Virus record (IMG/VR): IMGVR_UViG_3300028392_000038 | Location: 51,973 to 115,972 of that record | Length of the DNA: 64,000 nucleotides | Direction: 5' to 3' (one strand) | From: a virus | In this document: positions 3,984 to 52,399 of the stretch, in pieces | Numbering within the stretch: position 1 is the first letter of the stretch | Layout: every line of letters starts with the position of its first letter | The notes under the pieces: model-generated | Told to the model about the DNA's origin: nothing | The model's input: only the letters and a program-made list of their open reading frames with translations | Databases searched by the model: none | Position numbers and translations under genes: made by a program

Positions 3984-5138
3984 ATGATACAGAATTTTAA
4001 TAATTTCATTAATGAGGAATTAAGAATAGATAAGTTAGATGATAAATCGCTTAATCAATTAAAGTTAAATTTAATGGATAGGTTATCAGAATATAGAACT
4101 TACATTCTTAATAACATAATTTATAATATGGCTACTAATAAAGTAGAGTATAAAGAATTTGAAAACATAGATATTGCAACTATATTAAGAGAACTTAATA
4201 ATGAATTCACAAATGAAGTTGTTCAAGATATGAACATAGAAACTTTTTTAAGAAAGTTAAATCAAATATTAGACCTTCAAAAAAGAAACACTAAAAGAAG
4301 AATAAGAGAAGAGTTTGATGAATATTATAATTCAATTGAACAAAGAGTTTCTAAAATATCTAGAGGTGAAGATGAAGAACATTTTGATGCGGTTGAAGGT
4401 GAAGACTCTTTAATAACTAGAAAACAATATGAAACTGAGAAGTTTGGACTACAAGTTGAATTGTTAAAATTACAAGAATGGGTAGTTAAAAATAAGAAAA
4501 AAGTGGCTATTGTATTTGAAGGAAGAGATGCTGCTGGTAAAGGATCTACTATTAAAAGATTTACAGAATACCTAAATCCAAGAGGATTTAAGATTGTAGC
4601 ACTTGGATTACCAACTGATGAAGAAAAGAAAAATTGGTTTGCGAGATATGAAAAATATATGCCTCAACCAGGTGAAATAGTTTTCTTTGACCGTTCTTGG
4701 CACAATCGATCAATTGTTGAGCCAGCGATGGGTTATTGTTCAGAAGAACAATATATTGACTTCATGAATAATGTAAATAAATGGGAGGATCACTTAGTGA
4801 AAGATGAAGATATTATCTTAATTAAGTTTTGGTTCTCTATCACTAAAGAAAAACAAGAGTTAAGATTTGATTTAAGAAAATCAAACCCATTAAAATATTG
4901 GAAGTTTTCTCCAAATGATGCTAAAGTAATTGATAAATGGGATATTATTGGTAAATATAAAAACCAAATGTTTAGTAAAAATTCAACACCTTTGTGTCCG
5001 TGGGTAATTATAAATAGTAACGATAAAAAGATAGGTAGATTAAATGCCATCAGATATGTACTGAGTGTTATTCCATATGATGGAAGAGATGAAAAATCTT
5101 GTGAATATTACCCAGAAGTTGTAAATATTTTAAAATAA
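3984..5138 (+). CDS. ppk2: polyphosphate kinase 2 with about 140-aa N-terminal extension
   Basis: FEGRDAAGKGSTIKR Walker A, LNPRG, FDRSWHNR, KYWKFSPND, PWVII. Confidence 0.93.
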   Translation: MIQNFNNFINEELRIDKLDDKSLNQLKLNLMDRLSEYRTYILNNIIYNMATNKVEYKEFENIDIATILRELNNEFTNEVVQDMNIETFLRKLNQILDLQKRNTKRRIREEFDEYYNSIEQRVSKISRGEDEEHFDAVEGEDSLITRKQYETEKFGLQVELLKLQEWVVKNKKKVAIVFEGRDAAGKGSTIKRFTEYLNPRGFKIVALGLPTDEEKKNWFARYEKYMPQPGEIVFFDRSWHNRSIVEPAMGYCSEEQYIDFMNNVNKWEDHLVKDEDIILIKFWFSITKEKQELRFDLRKSNPLKYWKFSPNDAKVIDKWDIIGKYKNQMFSKNSTPLCPWVIINSNDKKIGRLNAIRYVLSVIPYDGRDEKSCEYYPEVVNILK

Positions 5139-6046
5139 TGGATAAAAGAATATTATCATTTGATAAGTTCAAATTACATTGTAACGACATATTTAATAAT
5201 AAATATGATTATACTAAATCAGAGTATCTAGGGATGAAACACCCTATAGAAATAATATGTCCTATACATGGAGAGTTCACACAAAAGGCACATAGTCACT
5301 ATTTGGGACATCACTGTTTTAAATGCTCAGGTAATAAAAAGTTAAAAAATGAGGAAATAATAGAACAATTTGTTAAAAAACATGGAGGTAGATATGACTA
5401 CTCAAAAGTAAATTATGTAAATAATAAAACGAGAGTTGAAATAGTATGTAAAATACACGGATCTTTCTACCAATCACCATATGAACATAAAAATGGACAA
5501 GGTTGTCCAAATTGTATTAAAAATAGGAAATTAGATAATAACATGTTTATAGAATTGGCTAATGATGTACACGATTTTAAATATAAATATAGTGATGATT
5601 ATTTTAATAGTAAAACAAAGGTAAATATTATCTGTTCAAAACATGGTGAATTTAAGATGACGCCAAATCATCACATAAGGGGACAAGGTTGTCCAAATTG
5701 CAAAAGTTCATTAGGTGAACTACTGGTTAGAAAATATTTAACTGATAATAAGATTAATTATGAAAGACAGAAGCTCTTTAAAGATTTGGTTAATAGTAAT
5801 AAAAGACATTTATTTTTTGACTTCTATTTAACAGATCATAATATCTGTATAGAATATGATGGTATACAACACTTTCAACCAGTTGTCGCATTTGGTGGTC
5901 AAAATTCATTTAATAAAATTTTAAAAAATAATGAAATAAAAAATAAATATTGTCTAATTAATAATATAAAGCTAATAAGGATACCATATTTTAAAATAAA
6001 GGAGATTAAAAATATTCTAGATATAGAAATTAATATAAAAAATTAA
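5138..6046 (+). CDS. free-standing homing endonuclease (CxxHG/GCPxC Zn repeats plus Vsr-like domain)
   Basis: Three C-x-x-HG-x-F...H-x-x-G-x-x-C-x-x-C repeats; C-terminal FDFYL...IEYDGIQHF...LIRIPY. Confidence 0.8.
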   Translation: MDKRILSFDKFKLHCNDIFNNKYDYTKSEYLGMKHPIEIICPIHGEFTQKAHSHYLGHHCFKCSGNKKLKNEEIIEQFVKKHGGRYDYSKVNYVNNKTRVEIVCKIHGSFYQSPYEHKNGQGCPNCIKNRKLDNNMFIELANDVHDFKYKYSDDYFNSKTKVNIICSKHGEFKMTPNHHIRGQGCPNCKSSLGELLVRKYLTDNKINYERQKLFKDLVNSNKRHLFFDFYLTDHNICIEYDGIQHFQPVVAFGGQNSFNKILKNNEIKNKYCLINNIKLIRIPYFKIKEIKNILDIEINIKN

Positions 6047-22010: not shown

Positions 22011-22069
22011 TTGTGTTTTTTCTAACAATAAGGGCAATCAATTTTAATATATATTATAAAATAGATATA

Positions 22070-22981
22070 ATGTTTATGTATTTATCATTTAATGATGCTA
22101 GAATAATTGTAAGAGAACAGAGGTTAAGAAATACAATCGACTGGTATAATTGGATAAAGGGTAAGTCTGATATTTATAATATACCATCCAATCCAAATAA
22201 AACATATTCTAAAGAATGGGTTTCATTATCAGACTGGTTAGGATCTGATAATGAATCATTTAATAATAGAGTGTATTATGATTATGAATACTGTAAGATT
22301 TTTGTTAAAAAATTAAATTTTAATAATAGAAAGGAATTTTACGAATTTGCTAAGAATAACCTTGATAAAAAAATTCCAAATAGACCAGACCATGTATATA
22401 AAAAACAAAATAAATGGGAAGGTTGGCAGAAGTTCCTATCTATTGAAAAAACACCACCTATACACAAGTGTAATTTATTTTTAACATATGAAGAGGCTAA
22501 AAAATTTATAAGTGATATAAAATTCACACAACAATCCGAGTATATAAATTACATAGAGAATAATAATATAGAGTTTTTGCCAAAAAGACCAGACTATGTT
22601 TATAGAAATAATTGGATTGGATATTTAGATTTTTTAGGATGTGAGACTAATAGAAAATCCTTTGGTGAAAAAAAAATAAAAGAATTTTTAGATCAAAATT
22701 CAATCAATTATATAAGAGAAAAGAAATTTGAAACTTGTAAAAACATCAAAGAGTTACCATTTGATTTTTATTTACCTGATTATAAAATATGTATAGAATA
22801 TGATGGAGAATTACATTATAGATCATCTAAAATATTTGGTGGTGAATCAACATTAAAAAGAATCAAAAAAAATGATGATATAAAAAGCAAATGGTGTTCG
22901 GAAAATAATATTAAATTATTAAGAATACCATATAAAAAGAAAAATAAAATATTTAAAATACTAATTTCGGAAATTATTTAG
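22070..22981 (+). CDS. homing endonuclease (IPxxPxxxY..W repeats plus Vsr-like domain)
   Basis: Repeats IPSNPNKTYSKEWVSLSDWLG / IPNRPDHVY / LPKRPDYVY; FDFYLPDYKICIEYDGELHY...LLRIPY. Confidence 0.8.
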   Translation: MFMYLSFNDARIIVREQRLRNTIDWYNWIKGKSDIYNIPSNPNKTYSKEWVSLSDWLGSDNESFNNRVYYDYEYCKIFVKKLNFNNRKEFYEFAKNNLDKKIPNRPDHVYKKQNKWEGWQKFLSIEKTPPIHKCNLFLTYEEAKKFISDIKFTQQSEYINYIENNNIEFLPKRPDYVYRNNWIGYLDFLGCETNRKSFGEKKIKEFLDQNSINYIREKKFETCKNIKELPFDFYLPDYKICIEYDGELHYRSSKIFGGESTLKRIKKNDDIKSKWCSENNIKLLRIPYKKKNKIFKILISEII

Positions 22982-26954: not shown

Positions 26955-27632
26955 ATGAACGATTTTAGAAAATTTGCAAATGATAAAATGGTGAGCACCA
27001 CTTACCTTAATGACTACTTTAAAAAACTAAATATAAGAAATAACACAACTCAATTAATTGAAAGTAACGGAATGTCTGTAGATATATTCTCAAAGCTTCT
27101 GGATGATAGAATAATATTTCTATGTACTGAAATAGATTCAGATATATGTAATATCATTAAAGCTCAGTTAATGTATCTTGAGACACAAAATGATGATGAT
27201 ATTAAAATCTATATTGATTCTCCTGGTGGATCTGTTTATAGTGGATTAGGTTTATTAGATGTTATGGATTATGTTAGTCCAGATATCATTACAGTCAATA
27301 CGGGACTAGCTGCGTCAATGGCAGCAGTTATATTATGTTCTGGTTCAAAAGGTAAAAGAAGAGCTCTTAGAAGAAGTAGAACAATGATTCACCAGCCGAT
27401 GACTGGATTTGGATCTTATGCTCAAGCAACTGATATAGAAATTGAATCAAGAGAGATTAACTCTCTAAAAAGAGAACTTTATGAAATTATATCAGAGAAG
27501 ACCGGACAAAACTACGATAAGGTATTTAAGGATGGTGATAGAGACTATTGGATGTCCGCCCAAGATGCTAAGAAATATGGAATGGTTGATGAGATAATAC
27601 AAAAGAGAGATAGTAAAAAGACCAAAAAATAA
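26955..27632 (+). CDS. clpP: ATP-dependent Clp protease proteolytic subunit
   Basis: DIFSKLLDDRIIFL, YIDSPGG, GLAASMA (Ser), MIHQP (His), DRDYWMSAQDA (Asp). Confidence 0.95.
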   Translation: MNDFRKFANDKMVSTTYLNDYFKKLNIRNNTTQLIESNGMSVDIFSKLLDDRIIFLCTEIDSDICNIIKAQLMYLETQNDDDIKIYIDSPGGSVYSGLGLLDVMDYVSPDIITVNTGLAASMAAVILCSGSKGKRRALRRSRTMIHQPMTGFGSYAQATDIEIESREINSLKRELYEIISEKTGQNYDKVFKDGDRDYWMSAQDAKKYGMVDEIIQKRDSKKTKK

Positions 27633-27674
27633 ATCACATATCCAAGGGGTTGATGTATATTTTATATATACAAT

Positions 27675-28631
27675 ATGGAAAATTATATAAACGATGATGA
27701 GAAGGAGTATAACTCTTTTATCTATCAATGGGAAGATATTAAATTGAATAAATTTTATATTGGGTCACATTATGGTAGTATTAATGATGGTTATCTATTT
27801 GGTGGTATAGACATCAAAAAGGAGTATAAAGAGAGACCAAATGATTTTAAAAGGAAAATATTATCATATCATTTGGTTTCTGAATATTTGGAGATAAGAA
27901 AAATAGAAAAAGAATATCTTATAAAAAATGACGTTGAAAATAATGATTTTTTTTATAATAGAACTAATGAATCATATGGTGGGTATCATAAAAAATCTGT
28001 TGAAAGGAGACTAAATGATATTGATGAAAATGGCTTAAATCATTTTCAGAGATCTGCCTTAAAAATGGTCAAGACTAGAAAAGAAAACGGTAGCTATAAG
28101 ACGTCAAAAATAAAGGAGTATATTACTAAGAATGATATAATGTCTGATATAAAAAATAAAATATCAAAAACTTTGATGGGTAGAAAGTGGGTCAATAAAG
28201 ATGGAGAAATAAGATATATTAGAGAAGAAGAATTCTTAACATATCTAAAAGATGGATGGAGTGATGGATTGAAATATAATATATCATATGATGAATGTAA
28301 AAAAATAGCAATTGATAATAATATAAAATCAGCATCAGAATGGTATAAATACTCAAGTGAAGTAGATTTACCGACACATCCAGAAAGAAGGTATAAAGAA
28401 TGGATAAGTTGGAATAGTTTTCTTGATAAGAAAATTATAAATTATATATCATATGATGAGTGTAAAAAAATAGCAATTGATAATAATATAAAATCAGCAT
28501 CTGAGTGGAAAAAATTAACAAAGTATATAAAGAATATACCATCTAATCCAAGTAGAAAATATAAAGAATGGATAAATTGGTATAGATTCTTAGATAAAGA
28601 ACATTTTGATATTTCTATTTCTCTTCTTTAA
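27675..28631 (+). CDS. GIY-YIG (Seg-like) homing endonuclease with C-terminal repeats
   Basis: FIYQW...FYIGSH...YLFGG, E...FYN; two ISYDECKKIAIDNNIKSASEW repeats. Confidence 0.8.
   Translation: MENYINDDEKEYNSFIYQWEDIKLNKFYIGSHYGSINDGYLFGGIDIKKEYKERPNDFKRKILSYHLVSEYLEIRKIEKEYLIKNDVENNDFFYNRTNESYGGYHKKSVERRLNDIDENGLNHFQRSALKMVKTRKENGSYKTSKIKEYITKNDIMSDIKNKISKTLMGRKWVNKDGEIRYIREEEFLTYLKDGWSDGLKYNISYDECKKIAIDNNIKSASEWYKYSSEVDLPTHPERRYKEWISWNSFLDKKIINYISYDECKKIAIDNNIKSASEWKKLTKYIKNIPSNPSRKYKEWINWYRFLDKEHFDISISLL
28280..28508. repeat. near-identical 64-bp internal duplication (28280-28343 and 28445-28508)
   Basis: TATATCATATGATGA(A/G)TGTAAAAAAATAGCAATTGATAATAATATAAAATCAGCATC(A/T)GA(A/G)TGG, 165 nt apart. 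Confidence 0.9.
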
Positions 28632-28636
28632 GACAC

Positions 28637-29149
28637 CTATTCTCCTAATAAAAAATATTGGAACTTACTAGATATCATATCTAATTCATATTCCAAATCT
28701 TTTTTATCAATTATTTTAATAATATCACTATTAGGACAAAATACATAATCTTCTGATTGGAGTTCTGCCATAAACTCTACTTTCTTTTCAATAGGTAGTC
28801 GCTTAAACTTTCCAAATACCTTATGAAATTTGGGAAATAAATCTTTGGAAAGAAAAACTTCCTCATCATATTCTTGTCCTAATCTCATAGGTCCAATTCC
28901 TCTTACTCTTATTTGATTAGCAATCTCATTATTAGATAAGTTTCTAACCGAAATTGGAATTCTTGTTAGTTTATTTAACATAGGATAAAGTGACCATGAA
29001 CTAGCACCTCTTTTAATCACATCAGATACATTAGGATAATCTATCCATCTTTCAGGACTAATTTGTGAATTAGCTGAGCTAAGATTCAATAGGTATTTAT
29101 CATTATCATCAGCAGATTCAAATATTTTGTATTTTTTTAAGTATTTCAC
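28637..29149 (-). CDS. hypothetical protein with N-terminal tag
   Basis: (GTG) MKYLKKYKIFES. Confidence 0.7.
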   Translation of the reverse strand: MKYLKKYKIFESADDNDKYLLNLSSANSQISPERWIDYPNVSDVIKRGASSWSLYPMLNKLTRIPISVRNLSNNEIANQIRVRGIGPMRLGQEYDEEVFLSKDLFPKFHKVFGKFKRLPIEKKVEFMAELQSEDYVFCPNSDIIKIIDKKDLEYELDMISSKFQYFLLGE

Positions 29150-29888: not shown

Positions 29889-30242
29889 TTATTTCTTTTC
29901 AGAAGGTTTAGCTTTTTTCACAGCTGGTTTAGCAGAAGGTTTAGCAACTGTTTTTGTAGCTGGTTTAACTTGCTTCGCAGCAGGCTTAGCAACTGGTTTT
30001 TCAGTCTTAGGTTCAGTCTTTGCTTTAGACTTAATATCTTTAGCAGTAACTTTTTTCTCTTCTTTCTTTTCAGCAGCTATTTCAGCTAATCTGTTTTCAA
30101 TTACTTTAGTTGGTTCTTCAACTTTAGCTTTCTCAACTTTAGGAGCCTCAGTTTTTTCAACTGTTACAACTGGCTTTTCGGCTATAGTAATAGCTTCTTC
30201 TTTCTTTCCAAATAGATTTTTAAAGAATGATAATATACTCAT
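29889..30242 (-). CDS. Lys/Ala/Pro-rich (histone H1-like) protein
   Basis: KPVAKPAAKQVKPATKTVAKPSAKPAVKKAK; amphipathic N-terminus MSILSFFKNLFG. Confidence 0.65.
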   Translation of the reverse strand: MSILSFFKNLFGKKEEAITIAEKPVVTVEKTEAPKVEKAKVEEPTKVIENRLAEIAAEKKEEKKVTAKDIKSKAKTEPKTEKPVAKPAAKQVKPATKTVAKPSAKPAVKKAKPSEKK

Positions 30243-30352
30243 AATTTAGTTTATTTTTTATTATATATCTATTTCTTTATCTTCCCTCTATAAAAAACCT
30301 CAAAAATTCCACAAATTTAAACACTTAGTATTATTTTATATATAACAATGAG

Positions 30353-31084
30353 ATGAAATTTAGATATGATAAAGAAACTGAAGAAATAGTTGTTACGTCA
30401 GCAACTAGAATTGAATACCACCAAGTTGGTCTTTGGTTAACTCGTCATGTCAAAGGATATAGATATATGCCAGCATTTAAAATGGGTGTTTGGAATGGAC
30501 AACAAACCTATTTCAAAAATGGTAGAGTAAATATAGGTCTTTGGAAAGAAGCTATGAGGGGATGTAAAGAAATTGATGCTCCTTTTATTTTAGAAAATAA
30601 AGAAGACTTTCCACTAAACAAAGATGTAACATTAGAAAAGGTTAAAAACTTCTGTAATGAATTCTTTAAGGATCATAAAGTTAAAACTAAAGATGGTCAA
30701 TGGGTTCCTTTTACACCCTATGAACATCAAATAGAATCAGCATTTAAAATACTTAAAAATAGATTCTGTATGGCAGAGGTTGCTACATCTGGTGGTAAGT
30801 CACTAATCATATCTATAGTAATGTTTTATACATTAAAGAATATGAATCCAGATGCTAAGTTTCTTATCATAGTTCCATCAATTACTTTAGTTACTCAGTT
30901 CTATGATGATTTATTAAAAAATTTCCACGGAGAGAACAATATTACTAATATATATAATAATTATTATTTGGAGATAGAATTGGTTGATAATACTATTTTA
31001 AAATTAAAACCAAATGATAAAATAATAACAAAAAATAGAGGAGAAATTTTTGCAAAAGATTTAACTGAGCTAGACGAAATATGA
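30353..31084 (+). CDS. uvsW: UvsW-like SF2 helicase, N-terminal half, with intein-like tail
   Basis: Q-motif PYEHQ, Walker A ATSGGKS, motif Ia IVPSITLVTQ; last 40 aa resemble the end of an IntN fragment. Confidence 0.85.
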   Translation: MKFRYDKETEEIVVTSATRIEYHQVGLWLTRHVKGYRYMPAFKMGVWNGQQTYFKNGRVNIGLWKEAMRGCKEIDAPFILENKEDFPLNKDVTLEKVKNFCNEFFKDHKVKTKDGQWVPFTPYEHQIESAFKILKNRFCMAEVATSGGKSLIISIVMFYTLKNMNPDAKFLIIVPSITLVTQFYDDLLKNFHGENNITNIYNNYYLEIELVDNTILKLKPNDKIITKNRGEIFAKDLTELDEI

Positions 31085-32322
31085 GAAAACTGGAGAAAAA
31101 TGAGATTTTAGAAAAATTCAAAGAAAAGCACAGTAATAATTATGACTACTCAAAGTTTGAGTATGTCGGTTATCACAAAAAAACAATAATAATATGTAAA
31201 ATACATGGTGGATTTTTACAAACTCCATCTAAGCATATAATAGGACAAGGATGTAAAATATGTAATATTAAATATTCTATTGGTGAGATAAAAGATAAGT
31301 TATATAAAATACACGGAGATAAATATGATTTTATTTTTGATGATGATGTAATAGATACTAGATCGAAAATAAAAATAAAATGTAATCATGGAATAAAAGA
31401 ATTACAAATACGATCTTTATTACAAGGACAAGGATGTATTTCTTGTAAGGGTAAAAAATGGACAGAGTTTGACCTGAAGAATTATCTAATTAAAATTCAT
31501 AGTGAATTAGTATATGAAGATGGATTTATGAATGGTCAATTTCTAAAAGTTATTTGTAAAGAACATGGTGATTTTAATATTAAAAAGGATAGACATTTAA
31601 GTGGACAGGGTTGTCCAAAATGTTCTAAAAGAAAAAAATATGACCAAACATTTTTTATAGATTCTATTAGTAAAAAATTTAATAATTTAAGTTATGATAA
31701 TTGTATTTTTATTTCTTTTAATAAAAAGGTTATAATAACTTGTACAAAACATGGAGATTTTGAAACGTATCCTAGTTATCTATTAAATGGTAATGGTTGT
31801 AAAATATGTAGAAATGAAAATAATTCACATTCCAAAGAATATTTTTTACAAAAATGTTTAGAAAGACATCCAGAAATAGATCATAGTATTTTAGAATATA
31901 ATGGTGTTAATAATAATATTAAATTGATTTGTAAGAAACATGGTATATTTGAACAAAAGGCGGGGTATTATTTGAATTATAGCAAAGGTTGTAAATATTG
32001 TAATGAGACAAAGGGAGAGAAACAAATTAGAATTTATTTAGAAAATAACAACCTAAAATATAAACAACAATATAAAAATCATGGATTTATTTTTGATTTT
32101 TATATACCAGATTACAATACATATATAGAGTTTAATGGTAGACAACATTATGAACCTATAGAATTTTTTGGTGGTGTTAAGTCATATAATAAACAATTAT
32201 CAAAAGATAAATTAAAAGATCAAATTTTAAAAAATGAGAATATAAAATTGATAAAAATAGGATATTGGCAAATAAATAAAGTTGATTGTATTTTAAAAAA
32301 AGAATTAATAAATGAAAATTAA
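31081..32322 (+). mobile_element. homing endonuclease gene fracturing the helicase (five Zn repeats plus Vsr-like domain)
   Basis: Repeated CKxHG...GxGCxxC; FDFYIPDYNTYIEFNGRQHY; overlaps both helicase halves. Confidence 0.85.
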
Positions 32323-33313
32323 AAGAATATCTAAAATAAAAATAGATGATGAAATAAGAGTAGAAGAAATAATGTCAGATAGACCAAGAAAATTCTCAGG
32401 TACTGAAAATCCTAACTTTTATATTGGCACTTATCAATCTTTAGAAAAGTGGCCTAAAACATTTTTTCAGCAATTTCACACGGTGGCTTGTGATGAGGCA
32501 CATGGTTCAAAAAGTAAGACAATAACATCTATTCTAGAAAATACTTTTAAACATGCTTATTCAAGATTTGGAGTCTCTGGTACTTTTCCGGAAGATGATA
32601 CTTGTGAAATACTAACCATACAATCTGTATTAGGTCCAAAGATTACAGAGGTTTCCGCAAATGAATTAAAAGAAAAGGGTATCATCACACCAATGGATAT
32701 TAAAGTTGTGATAATGAATCATAATGACTCTGAATTTGCTGAAAGAATTAATATAATAAAGAAAAGTGGAAATGGTAAAGACGCATTTGATTTAGAAAAA
32801 GATTATATTCATATCTCTGAAAGAAGATTAGACTTCATTAAAAAGATAGTAGATAAATGTGACTCAAATACATTACTACTATTTCATACAATTGAATATG
32901 GTCAAAGTATTTTTAATAAGTTACAGAAAGAATGCTCTGATAAGGAATTTTATTATATTGATGGTGAGATATCTGGTAAGAAAAGAGAAGTTATTAAAAA
33001 AGAAATGGATAAAACCGATGGTAAAACCAAAGTATTATGTGCGAGTTTTGGGACATTATCTACAGGTGTCTCGATTAATGCCATCTTCAATGTTATATTT
33101 GCTGATTCATTTAAGTCAGAACAAATTATTATACAATCAATAGGTCGTGCTCTTCGTTTACATGATGATAAAAAGAAAGCTAATATATTTGACTTAGTTG
33201 ATGTTTTCTCATCAGGTGAGATGTCTAATATTTTGTACAGACATTTTAAAGAAAGAGAGAAGTTTTATATTAAAAGACAGTATCCTTATAAAATTACTAA
33301 AATTAATCTATAA
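32312..33313 (+). CDS. uvsW: UvsW-like SF2 helicase, C-terminal half
   Basis: GTYQSL, CDEAH (motif II), SGT (III), STGVSI (V), QSIGRALR (VI); starts MKIKRISKIK. Confidence 0.88.
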   Translation: MKIKRISKIKIDDEIRVEEIMSDRPRKFSGTENPNFYIGTYQSLEKWPKTFFQQFHTVACDEAHGSKSKTITSILENTFKHAYSRFGVSGTFPEDDTCEILTIQSVLGPKITEVSANELKEKGIITPMDIKVVIMNHNDSEFAERINIIKKSGNGKDAFDLEKDYIHISERRLDFIKKIVDKCDSNTLLLFHTIEYGQSIFNKLQKECSDKEFYYIDGEISGKKREVIKKEMDKTDGKTKVLCASFGTLSTGVSINAIFNVIFADSFKSEQIIIQSIGRALRLHDDKKKANIFDLVDVFSSGEMSNILYRHFKEREKFYIKRQYPYKITKINL

Positions 33314-34918
33314 TTACTTACTAGATTGAGCATCTTCTACATCCTTAGATGTTATTAAAGTGTAAGTAAATTTATTACCATACTTAGCTTTATGTTTATC
33401 TAATAGTCCAAATATTTGATCTAAGTGAGATGGATCTGGTATAACTTGACATCCTTCTGACCAATTATAAACACCATATGTATTTTTACCTTGAGCTCTA
33501 TTAAATGCTTTATGTATTAACATACCTGCTGATCCAGAACCTTCCTTACTAAAGGTTAATTTATCATCACCATTTGCAGCATCTCTATAAAACTTTTGAA
33601 CACCTGGTCTTAAACATTTTTCACCATGATACTCACCAATTTGCCAAGAGTCAACATACTGAGCCGGTTTCAATATTCCTAATCCCCCTCTTTCTTTAAT
33701 TTTAGGTATATCTTTGTGTAGAATAGAGTACTTACCACCAACCTGAGAATCTCCTTTACTTCCATATTTACCTGGTATAGTAGAGATAGGAAACCAAACA
33801 ACTTTTGATGCTCCTTCATCATTTTTATAAACAAGATAAATTCTATCTTTGAATTGGTTTGAATATCCTTGGCCAGGATATTGATATCTAACTCCAATTA
33901 TATTCATTTGCCATGCTTTATCATAAACAACATATCCTTTTTTCCTAAGAGCTTTCAAAATTGTTTCAGCATCAGCATTTACTTCTTTTGATGCAGGTGG
34001 AATATTATCAGCAGTTATAGGTGGCCCACCTGGAGTACCTGGTTCGGTGGTGGGTTGATTAACATTACCATTGGTGTCACCAGCAGCAGTAGTTAAAGTA
34101 CCTTCAATCGGAGTGGCTGACTTAGGTGTGAAAGTAATAGGTTCTTTCATAACCAACTCATTCTTCTGAATTGTTGATTTCCAAGTATCACCAACTTGAC
34201 CATCTGTTACTCTATTATCCTGTGTAGGTATAATAGATGAATCTATATAACCATTGTCATTTAAATTAACATTCTTAGAAAGAAATTTAGGATCTTTAAG
34301 AGCTTTATACTTTGCAAGAACATCTATAAATGATGAATTAGCAACAACCGGAGCTAATAGATTACCTAAGTAAGGTCCATTTAATAAGTTATCTACAAAC
34401 TCATCAAACCAATTTAAGAAGTTAGTACCAAGTATAGCTTGTTGATTTGCATTACCAGAACCAATATTAATAGTACCCATATTATCTTTTAGATTCATAT
34501 CAATACCACCATCTCTTAAATTTATTTGAGTTATCTTATAATCTAAAACAACACCCTCTTTATCATTAACAAAAAATTGAGTTTTATGATCAAAGAAAAT
34601 AGACTTCATTGAAGTATAATCTTTACCATCTAAATTTTGTAACTTCTTTTCTAAATTTATATTATAATGTTCAGAATATAAAAATTCAGGTTTGTATATA
34701 TTTCCTTGATCAAAAACAATAGTAACTATTTTACCCTTTTCAGGAACATTAAATCCATTACCATTCAAGTCTTTCCAAGGATTAGCCCAGGGTATATCCT
34801 CTGTAGGTATTTCATCAAATATATCCAATGCTCTAACTTTAACCCTTCCGAGTTTTTTAGGATCATCATTATCTTCGACTACACCAATATAAGTTTTATT
34901 AGCTTCAACTTGAATCAT
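33314..34918 (-). CDS. baseplate hub/spike protein (gp5-like OB fold) with L,D-peptidase-like C-terminal domain
   Basis: YIGVVEDNDDPKKLGRVKVR...IPWA...VPEKG; C-terminal LIHKAF...NWSEGCQV. Confidence 0.8.
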   Translation of the reverse strand: MIQVEANKTYIGVVEDNDDPKKLGRVKVRALDIFDEIPTEDIPWANPWKDLNGNGFNVPEKGKIVTIVFDQGNIYKPEFLYSEHYNINLEKKLQNLDGKDYTSMKSIFFDHKTQFFVNDKEGVVLDYKITQINLRDGGIDMNLKDNMGTINIGSGNANQQAILGTNFLNWFDEFVDNLLNGPYLGNLLAPVVANSSFIDVLAKYKALKDPKFLSKNVNLNDNGYIDSSIIPTQDNRVTDGQVGDTWKSTIQKNELVMKEPITFTPKSATPIEGTLTTAAGDTNGNVNQPTTEPGTPGGPPITADNIPPASKEVNADAETILKALRKKGYVVYDKAWQMNIIGVRYQYPGQGYSNQFKDRIYLVYKNDEGASKVVWFPISTIPGKYGSKGDSQVGGKYSILHKDIPKIKERGGLGILKPAQYVDSWQIGEYHGEKCLRPGVQKFYRDAANGDDKLTFSKEGSGSAGMLIHKAFNRAQGKNTYGVYNWSEGCQVIPDPSHLDQIFGLLDKHKAKYGNKFTYTLITSKDVEDAQSSK

Positions 34919-51970: not shown

Positions 51971-52399
51971 ATGAAATACGTTAAAACATTCGAACAGTAC
52001 TCAGTTGTAAATGAGGAAGAAATACTTGGACTTGGTAAGCTTTTCAATAAATCCACTGCTACTGAGGTAGACTTATCAAAAACTGATGATGTTAAATTAG
52101 CAGAAGCTGTTAAAAAATATTTAGACTCTACTTATGAGGGTGGTAAAATTACCAAATCTAGTAGATGGGAAATTGTTAAAAGCAATAGAAAATTAATCAC
52201 CGAATCTGGTGTACCTGCTGAGTTAGTTGATAAAGTACTTGCTGTAATAGCAATGATTCAAAAAGGATTACCTTTATTTTCATTCATTCCCGAAGTTGCT
52301 GAAAAAAATCAAAAAGGACATTTATTAACATATAATAAAGAAACTAATATGTTAAAATTTACCGCAGCTTCAGAAAAAACTGTTAATCCAAACGGATAA
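51971..52399 (+). CDS. hypothetical protein with N-terminal tag
   Basis: MKYVKTFEQYSVVNEE. Confidence 0.7.
   Translation: MKYVKTFEQYSVVNEEEILGLGKLFNKSTATEVDLSKTDDVKLAEAVKKYLDSTYEGGKITKSSRWEIVKSNRKLITESGVPAELVDKVLAVIAMIQKGLPLFSFIPEVAEKNQKGHLLTYNKETNMLKFTAASEKTVNPNG

Follow-up and report, generated by a model that had tools for sequence, protein, structure and literature searches.

The window examined here is a 64,000-nt stretch of viral DNA, positions 51,973–115,972 of the 116-kb IMG/VR record IMGVR_UViG_3300028392_000038, whose nearest named relatives are uncultured phage assemblies of 462–735 kb. It contains a UvsW-like helicase gene that is split by an endonuclease gene, with two open reading frames (ORFs) for one superfamily 2 (SF2) helicase. 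On both sides the break is lined by coding sequence that we ascribe to the middle half of an NrdJ-1-type split intein, a remnant that, judging by the residues it lacks, is unable to splice. We consider it rather probable that these half-intein flanks dock the two helicase chains non-covalently, and that the gene works through two polypeptides with no splicing.

The locus is made up of three overlapping ORFs on the plus strand (Table 1). The stop codon of the upstream helicase half and the start codon of the endonuclease share the four nucleotides ATGA, and the last 11 nt of the endonuclease gene are the first 11 nt of the downstream half. The Pfam DEAD profile was divided between the two halves: residues 124–198 of the N-half matched profile positions 2–77 and residues 10–95 of the C-half matched positions 69–162, which places the break after motif Ia and before motifs Ib and II. 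The N-half scored 34.2 bits with DEAD (cut-off 26) and was also matched by ResIII, and the C-half scored 38.2 bits with Helicase_C (cut-off 23.5). SF2 motifs, two RecA-like domains and tblastn matches to annotated uvsW genes (29–36% identity) were all present; as UvsW_N matched the N-half only weakly, at 21 bits against a cut-off of 25.3, the term UvsW-like is used here in a broad sense. An earlier annotation of the window, made by a model from the sequence alone (the first-pass annotation), had described such a helicase, cut between motifs Ia and Ib by a 413-aa ORF overlapping both halves, with no room for an intron ribozyme, and our analysis bears out both statements. A group I intron with a nested endonuclease ORF was rejected, as both junctions consist of overlapping ORFs and a search of 30000–33600 with Rfam (E ≤ 10) detected no intron family. 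Nor does the arrangement represent an assembly artefact, to judge from the 13 clusters of 242–243-aa N-halves with the same tail in JGI, ENA and Logan assemblies and from two diverged copies (loci L016 and L059) on other contigs.

Table 1. Parts of the split helicase locus, in window coordinates.
Feature	Position	Strand	Length	Remarks
Helicase N-half ORF	30353–31084	+	243 aa	
Endonuclease ORF	31081–32322	+	413 aa	Free-standing homing-endonuclease gene; repeated zinc-ribbon-like modules and C-terminal Vsr/DUF559-like nuclease domain (~31978–32319)
Helicase C-half ORF	32312–33313	+	333 aa	
N-half, native part	30353–30940	+	aa 1–196	UvsW_N-like domain, RecA1 motifs I and Ia; collinear with uninterrupted orthologues
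Non-helicase tail of N-half	30941–31084	+	47 aa and stop codon	Homology to the final 41 N-intein residues over 30959–31081
Basic head of C-half	32312–32353	+	14 aa	Begins MKIKR; position of the C-intein first strand; absent from cassette-free orthologues
C-half, native part	32354–33313	+		Rest of RecA1 (Ib, II DEAH, III) and RecA2
Tract differing from nearest relative L011	~30895–32595	+		Cassette and helicase flank (left ~45 nt, right ~240 nt); interpreted as due to gene conversion

Alignment with uninterrupted orthologues, to which the native part of the C-half is 77–85% identical, showed that helicase homology stops at about residue 196 of the N-half and restarts at residue 15 of the C-half. 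These limits define a 47-aa tail (30941–31081) and a 14-aa head (32312–32353). The first-pass annotation had recognized a non-helicase end on the N-half and a head starting MKIKR, and both are there; the tail is longer than the 40 aa (30962–31081) that it was given.

A profile of six such tails was compared with a profile of six genuine N-inteins (from loci L011, L025, L044, L048, L140 and L142), and the two matched clearly (hhalign probability 97.3%, E = 2e-11, 44% identity). The tail covers columns 53–93 of the 100 N-intein columns and leaves columns 1–52 unmatched; native helicase homology reaches to 7 residues before its intein-aligned part. The top PDB sequence match of the tail in phmmer was the NrdJ-1 split intein (E = 0.01), with an alignment that stops at the natural end of the N-fragment, and a profile of tail plus head found NrdJ-1 at E = 0.0034 with an alignment crossing the split point. 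Among 1.84 billion representative proteins, the sole non-repetitive strong phmmer match of the tail (P0003; E = 5e-6, 59% identity) was the N-fragment of another helicase, which ends in a complete N-intein inserted after the DE of motif II; the remaining matches were TPR-like repeats with a KPND-like motif and were treated as noise. A word-based search, which counts as weak evidence, found no longer proteins containing the tail. No Hint or intein model of Pfam or NCBIfam matched the tail or head even at E ≤ 10, a silence that we attribute to the missing conserved blocks (block A, TxxH). As a positive control, the genuine split intein of L011 was detected by Pfam (Hint, 4e-11; Intein_splicing, 9e-9 and 1e-5).

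These comparisons identify the tail as a true homologue of the C-terminal half of an N-intein of the NrdJ-1 type, and the break sits, in the aligned sequences, at the canonical endonuclease-insertion and split site of inteins. The likely source family comprises genuine NrdJ-1-type split inteins of the kind present in two ribonucleotide reductase genes on IMG/VR contigs (L140:872–4045 and L142:1809–4132), whose N-intein ends are 39–55% identical to the tails. The tail strand carries a charge of −2 to −4 and the head strand one of +4 to +5, a pair that is kept in split, contiguous (see below) and genuine-intein forms and that matches the beta3/beta6 charge network of split inteins. Thus, the relationship to an N-intein end and the retained acidic/basic strand pair, both put forward by the first-pass annotation, agree with the profile comparison, the phmmer match, the structural matches given below and the charge pattern.

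The catalytic parts of the intein are missing. The block B position TxxH reads KPND in the window and xPx[D/E] in all split and contiguous relatives, as against T(P/G)xH in genuine inteins. There is no Cys or Ser first residue of block A and nothing that corresponds to the N-terminal 52 N-intein columns. Blocks F and G, with their His-Asn and the +1 Cys/Ser/Thr, are likewise absent, as the 14 residues of the head are followed by native helicase with an Ile at the junction. In contrast, the C-intein of L011 ends in Asn followed by Cys and is matched by Pfam Intein_splicing. With the first ~52 residues of the N-intein and the last ~25 of the C-intein gone, ~60 residues are left of the ~125 needed by the fold. 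The locus therefore shows homology to the Hint fold (hhalign, NrdJ-1 as best PDB match, model of a contiguous relative) and no complete split intein able to restore the parent protein. Since block A, TxxH, blocks F/G and the +1 nucleophile are all absent, protein splicing by this remnant can be excluded on the sequence. The first-pass annotation had read the loss of splicing chemistry and of about half of the Hint fold from the same residues, which we saw again both in the sequence and in the hhalign columns.

We considered the possibility that the halves are nevertheless joined covalently, by unconventional protein splicing, intron splicing or ribosomal bypass. Reasons to consider it are that trans-splicing is the rule in fractured genes and that group I introns are a frequent home of phage endonuclease genes; positive evidence for it was not found. 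Yet, ~60 residues without a residue-1 or +1 nucleophile, TxxH or His-Asn are unable to form a Hint active site, the overlapping ORFs leave no non-coding RNA and Rfam found no intron there, and a bypass of 1.2 kb would be far beyond known hops (PMC2677866). Covalent joining by any of these routes is in our view very improbable.

To place the cassette among its relatives, we compared the position of the break (site A) across 124 related loci, drawn from IMG/VR and from JGI/ENA metagenomes. The helicase is uninterrupted there in 114 of them, contains in-frame extra sequence in 5, is split in 3, including the window, and is ambiguous in 2. Cassette-free orthologues have a short, variable loop at site A, and four large-phage records encode one continuous helicase of 520–536 aa. 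The five contiguous forms (L041, L060, L061, L062 and L063) are uninterrupted helicases of 575–577 aa with an in-frame insert of ~60 aa and no endonuclease; in this insert, the tail and the head are joined by 1–3 residues. Two further contiguous clusters were present in the protein database (P0023/24). The split form occurs with intact ORFs in at least 15 sequence clusters. In L016 the cassette is diverged (tail 54% identical; endonuclease of 296 aa, 39% identical), both junction overlaps are kept, and both helicase halves are intact with all motifs. The cassette of L059 is diverged as well, and its short contig shows the N-half only. Adjacent halves with a free-standing endonuclease overlapping the downstream half, which is the arrangement of a fractured gene in the sense of Dassa et al. 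(2009), are found in the window and equally in L016.

An intein origin would be contradicted if the two segments were native helicase sequence in uninterrupted orthologues. The segment is indeed present in the five contiguous forms, but as an intein-derived insert, absent from 114 of the 124 loci. The first-pass annotation spoke of an intein that had lost its splicing chemistry, which we do not read as simple decay in place within this gene. None of the 124 loci has a complete intein at site A, which leaves in-place decay unsupported; the same tail and head exist as a contiguous in-frame insert, and the window gained the whole cassette horizontally with helicase flank.

The contiguous forms also allowed the fold of the joined segments to be predicted. 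In an AlphaFold2 model of the whole L060 helicase (32-row alignment), the insert had a predicted local distance difference test score (pLDDT) of 82–86; when the 74-aa insert region was modelled alone (10-row alignment), pLDDT rose to 94–95 over residues 11–60, which form five strands. In a Foldseek search of the PDB with the insert model, the first ~30 rows were all inteins, Hedgehog and BIL domains, with probabilities of 0.99–1.0 and root mean square deviations down to 1.6 Å over 58 columns; the E-values were weak (0.07–0.3) because the query is so small. VIA-align, which is independent of Foldseek, placed Hint domains at ranks 1–28 (Z 7.2 to 3.3) and gave unrelated folds Z-scores below 3. 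The model aligns to the middle of inteins across their split site, at residues 36–104 of 127 in gp41-1 and 52–128 of 150 in NrdJ-1. The head aligns with the last strand of the contiguous insert, and that strand belongs to the Hint-like model. Joined, tail and head are thus predicted to form one small Hint-like beta unit; the structural search against Hint domains that the first-pass annotation had called for gave, on the joined insert of a contiguous relative, top matches that were all Hint.

The history of the cassette is one of movement. In trees of the N-terminal 170 and central 160 residues of the helicase, L011 and L015 (99% and 96% identity), neither of which has an insert at site A, form a group with the window. 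The contiguous forms and the split L059 make up a separate, well-supported basal clade, and the presence of the insert needs 4–5 changes on the tree. At the DNA level, the window and L011 show 0 mismatches over 30533–30892, after which the count rises to 6 and 18 per 30 nt; to the right of the cassette, 4–10 mismatches per 30 nt (~18% different) persist to ~32594 and are then mostly 0–3. The sharp breakpoints near 30895 and 32595, set against near-identical cassette-free relatives, indicate that the window acquired the cassette horizontally together with flanking helicase sequence, and we ascribe the tract between them to gene conversion (homing). Mean identity across the 13 close clusters is 90% for the tail and 76% for the helicase N-terminus, a mosaic such as homing would be expected to leave when flanks are co-converted. 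That L016 has kept both overlaps in a diverged cassette shows the arrangement to be old as well as mobile. Finally, contiguous inserts are more diverged from one another than split ones, and L059 is nearest to L060. We therefore lean slightly towards an order of events in which a contiguous half-Hint existed first and was invaded by the endonuclease, rather than one in which the endonuclease was precisely lost several times.

The middle ORF was matched by PHROG 559, 681 and 9084 (endonuclease or homing endonuclease) and, weakly and below cut-off, by the Pfam families RAP (8.7e-4) and DUF559 (E = 0.068). Its nuclease domain contains a pattern, FDF...IE(F/Y)(D/N)G..H, common to three paralogues/orthologues; the conserved D / E..G..H fits the description of the EDxHD family (PMC3239194), and membership of the EDxHD/Vsr-like group is likely. 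Neither the endonuclease nor a four-sequence profile had a PDB sequence match, including the solved EDxHD structure and Vsr. The D-to-N change in the motif was considered as a sign of inactivation and rejected, since I-Bth0305I, the prototype of EDxHD/Vsr-like homing endonucleases (Taylor et al. 2011, PMC3239194), carries Asn at about the same position. Like I-Bth0305I, the window's enzyme combines an Asp/Glu/His pattern in a C-terminal nuclease domain with repeated N-terminal DNA-binding modules and is encoded by a free-standing gene among phage replication/repair genes. Unlike it, its N-terminal modules are zinc-ribbon-like rather than NUMODs, and it has no significant sequence match to the solved structure. 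Two paralogues, 35–41% identical in the nuclease domain, stand free between genes elsewhere in the window (5138–6046 and 22013–22981), and the start of the first coincides with the last stop-codon base of a PPK2-like gene.

Taken together, these data lead us to the following mechanism. A mobile cassette, consisting of a Vsr-like endonuclease gene flanked by coding sequence of the non-catalytic middle half of an NrdJ-1-type split intein, has entered the helicase gene by copying, in the loop that separates motif Ia from motif Ib. Coupled translation of all three ORFs from a single mRNA is probable, given the ATGA and 11-nt overlaps. What is left of the intein are the parts with which split inteins capture each other: the tail holds the acidic strand region from the N-intein end, and the head corresponds to the basic strand with which the C-intein begins. 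Tail and head may re-form in trans the small beta unit that contiguous relatives make in cis, and this unit would hold both parts of RecA1 together with no peptide bond between them. The intact motifs, the low ratio of nonsynonymous to synonymous substitution rates (dN/dS) of the halves (~0.1) and the predicted fold of the joined insert point indirectly to such trans-complementation and to a helicase that would be active as two chains. The docking role of tail and head is plausible in view of the conserved acidic/basic strand pair and of a dN/dS of ~0.3 for the insert, a value that points to purifying selection.

The dN/dS values were obtained by the Nei–Gojobori method and are rough, with dS near saturation. 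For the insert, dN/dS was ~0.3 between the three diverged split cassettes (dS ~1) and 0.08–0.14 in a close contiguous trio with few changes. The N-terminal core of the helicase gave ~0.1–0.25 in several pairs, including the window versus L016, and the C-terminal core 0.02–0.17 where dS could be estimated, the window versus L016 being saturated. The endonuclease gave 0.3.

A first alternative is that the helicase was inactivated by the insertion and that the two ORFs are young, undecayed halves of a pseudogene. The cassette was recently gained in the window's lineage, and UvsW is non-essential in T4. Against this, L016 and L059 carry diverged cassettes (tail ~50–60% identical, endonuclease 39%), the halves of L016 are intact with all motifs and a dN/dS of ~0.1 versus the window, and 13 further clusters have intact 242–243-aa N-halves. 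We hold inactivation to be improbable.

The main rival of docking is that the half-intein pieces are passive hitch-hikers, which travel with the endonuclease gene as carriers of its expression signals and of the start codon of the downstream half, and that the chains assemble, if at all, via the split RecA1 itself. Fractured genes with no intein are known, and Aeh1 nrdA has been shown to be functional (as cited in PMC2677866); an SbcD-like locus has likewise unexplained extra residues at its break (PMC2677866). The junction overlaps are conserved in L016, and conservation of the tail in close relatives fits a recent spread. However, the contiguous forms keep the insert in frame, without an endonuclease and with a confidently predicted fold, across ~50% divergence; moreover, the dN/dS of the insert is below 1 and its charge pattern is conserved. 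We regard passive carriage as unlikely, though less so than inactivation.

Several observations do weigh against docking by the half-intein flanks. The flanks are also needed at the DNA level, since they contain a stop codon, the coupled start of the endonuclease and the start codon of the C-half, so that their presence is by itself no proof of a role as protein. UvsW is dispensable in T4, and a dead gene could be tolerated for some time. Conservation of the tail across the 13 close clusters is best explained by recent spread, not by constraint. In the informative pairs, dS is near saturation. The fold was predicted on a contiguous relative, 50–65% identical, and not on the window's two chains. 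Lastly, the similarity to Hint domains that the first-pass annotation expected of tail and head stood for the tail; the head alone, compared with C-inteins by BLASTP, had 8 of 15 identities and no significance (E = 32).

A further-reaching version of the docking reading, to which we give slightly less than an even chance, is that half of the Hint fold, one of its C2-symmetry-related units with a partner strand, has been retained here and folds autonomously. The endonuclease would carry it as a repair kit made of a stop, a start and a high-affinity non-covalent docking pair, available wherever the cassette inserts. Genes could then be fractured and yet survive even where a true intein has no place, as in a variable loop that offers no nucleophile, and the contiguous versions would represent a half-Hint domain that stands alone in nature.

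Other interruptions occur in the same helicase family. In the nearest relatives of the window (L011:4001–6858; also L012–L015, L025, L044, L045 and L048), the helicase is fractured 50 codons downstream of site A, at motif II (DE|AH), by a genuine split intein; its 100-aa N-intein starts CLHPD and has TGNH in block B, and its C-intein ends in Asn, followed by Cys. A different ORF of 277 aa, with weak TnsA-like/restriction-fold matches, lies between the halves. None of the loci with the motif II intein has the site-A cassette, and the converted tract of the window spans the motif II site; cassette and intein may displace each other. A third interruption site lies near helicase residue 450–470 (L049:4001–6786 and L056:4001–7176; also L018, L031, L035, L048 and L057). 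The upstream ORF of L049 and L056 ends in a tail that resembles intein block B but lacks TxxH, while the downstream piece starts independently, with a basic head in L056; the 319-aa ORF between the pieces of L049 is HNH-like by eye and has no Pfam match. We see in this a possible second degenerate half-Hint cassette of the gene family, independent of that at site A. Just upstream of the window's helicase, 27609–29141 has no counterpart in L011 save 42 nt and may represent a further mobile insertion. On opposite strands it encodes a 318-aa protein (27675–28631), unmatched in Pfam and with a near-identical pair of ~45-aa repeats in its C-terminal part, and a 170-aa protein.

How does the locus compare with known systems? 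In the fractured genes reported by Dassa et al. (2009), a complete split intein is accompanied by a free-standing endonuclease, Vsr-like in many cases, and downstream overlaps measure 6–69 bp; in their NrdJ-1-type inteins the N part is acidic and the C part basic (PMC2677866). The window shares with these the halves of a phage DNA-metabolism gene, an intervening endonuclease whose 3' end overlaps the downstream half, NrdJ-1-type flanks and the same charge polarity. It differs from them in having only the middle of the intein and no catalytic residue, hence no trans-splicing, and in its site, a variable surface loop rather than a conserved nucleophile motif. Fractured genes with an endonuclease and no intein are represented by Aeh1 nrdA-a/mobE/nrdA-b, gp43 of Aeromonas phage 25 and an SbcD-like GOS locus with a Vsr-like ORF, in which the upstream ORF has 25 and the downstream ORF 9 extra residues (PMC2677866). 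Here too a free-standing endonuclease splits a gene whose product must work as two chains; unlike in the SbcD-like locus, for which no such origin has been reported, an intein origin of the extra residues can be demonstrated here, and they recur as a foldable unit. In split inteins, the charged strand pair at the N-intein end and C-intein start is thought to begin the association of the fragments (Beyer et al., bioRxiv 10.1101/546465). In contrast to the NrdJ-1 and gp41-1 inteins, the remnant of the window has lost the first symmetry unit and the terminal strands, which would permit association without subsequent splicing. A literature search of incomplete coverage yielded no description of natural non-splicing half-inteins.

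If our reading is correct, intein/endonuclease elements would have a third outcome beside splicing and loss, namely reduction to a module that brings about association without splicing and so leaves a fractured gene usable, and a wider set of sites would be open to selfish endonucleases. The flanks would also be natural, small, scar-tolerant heterodimerisation tags related to the ultrafast NrdJ-1 and gp41-1 inteins. The helicase family offers a natural series, from empty sites through the contiguous half-Hint and the split half-Hint with endonuclease to a genuine split intein 50 codons downstream. It would likewise be a natural test of whether half a Hint fold can fold alone, which bears on the origin of the Hint fold by duplication of such a unit.

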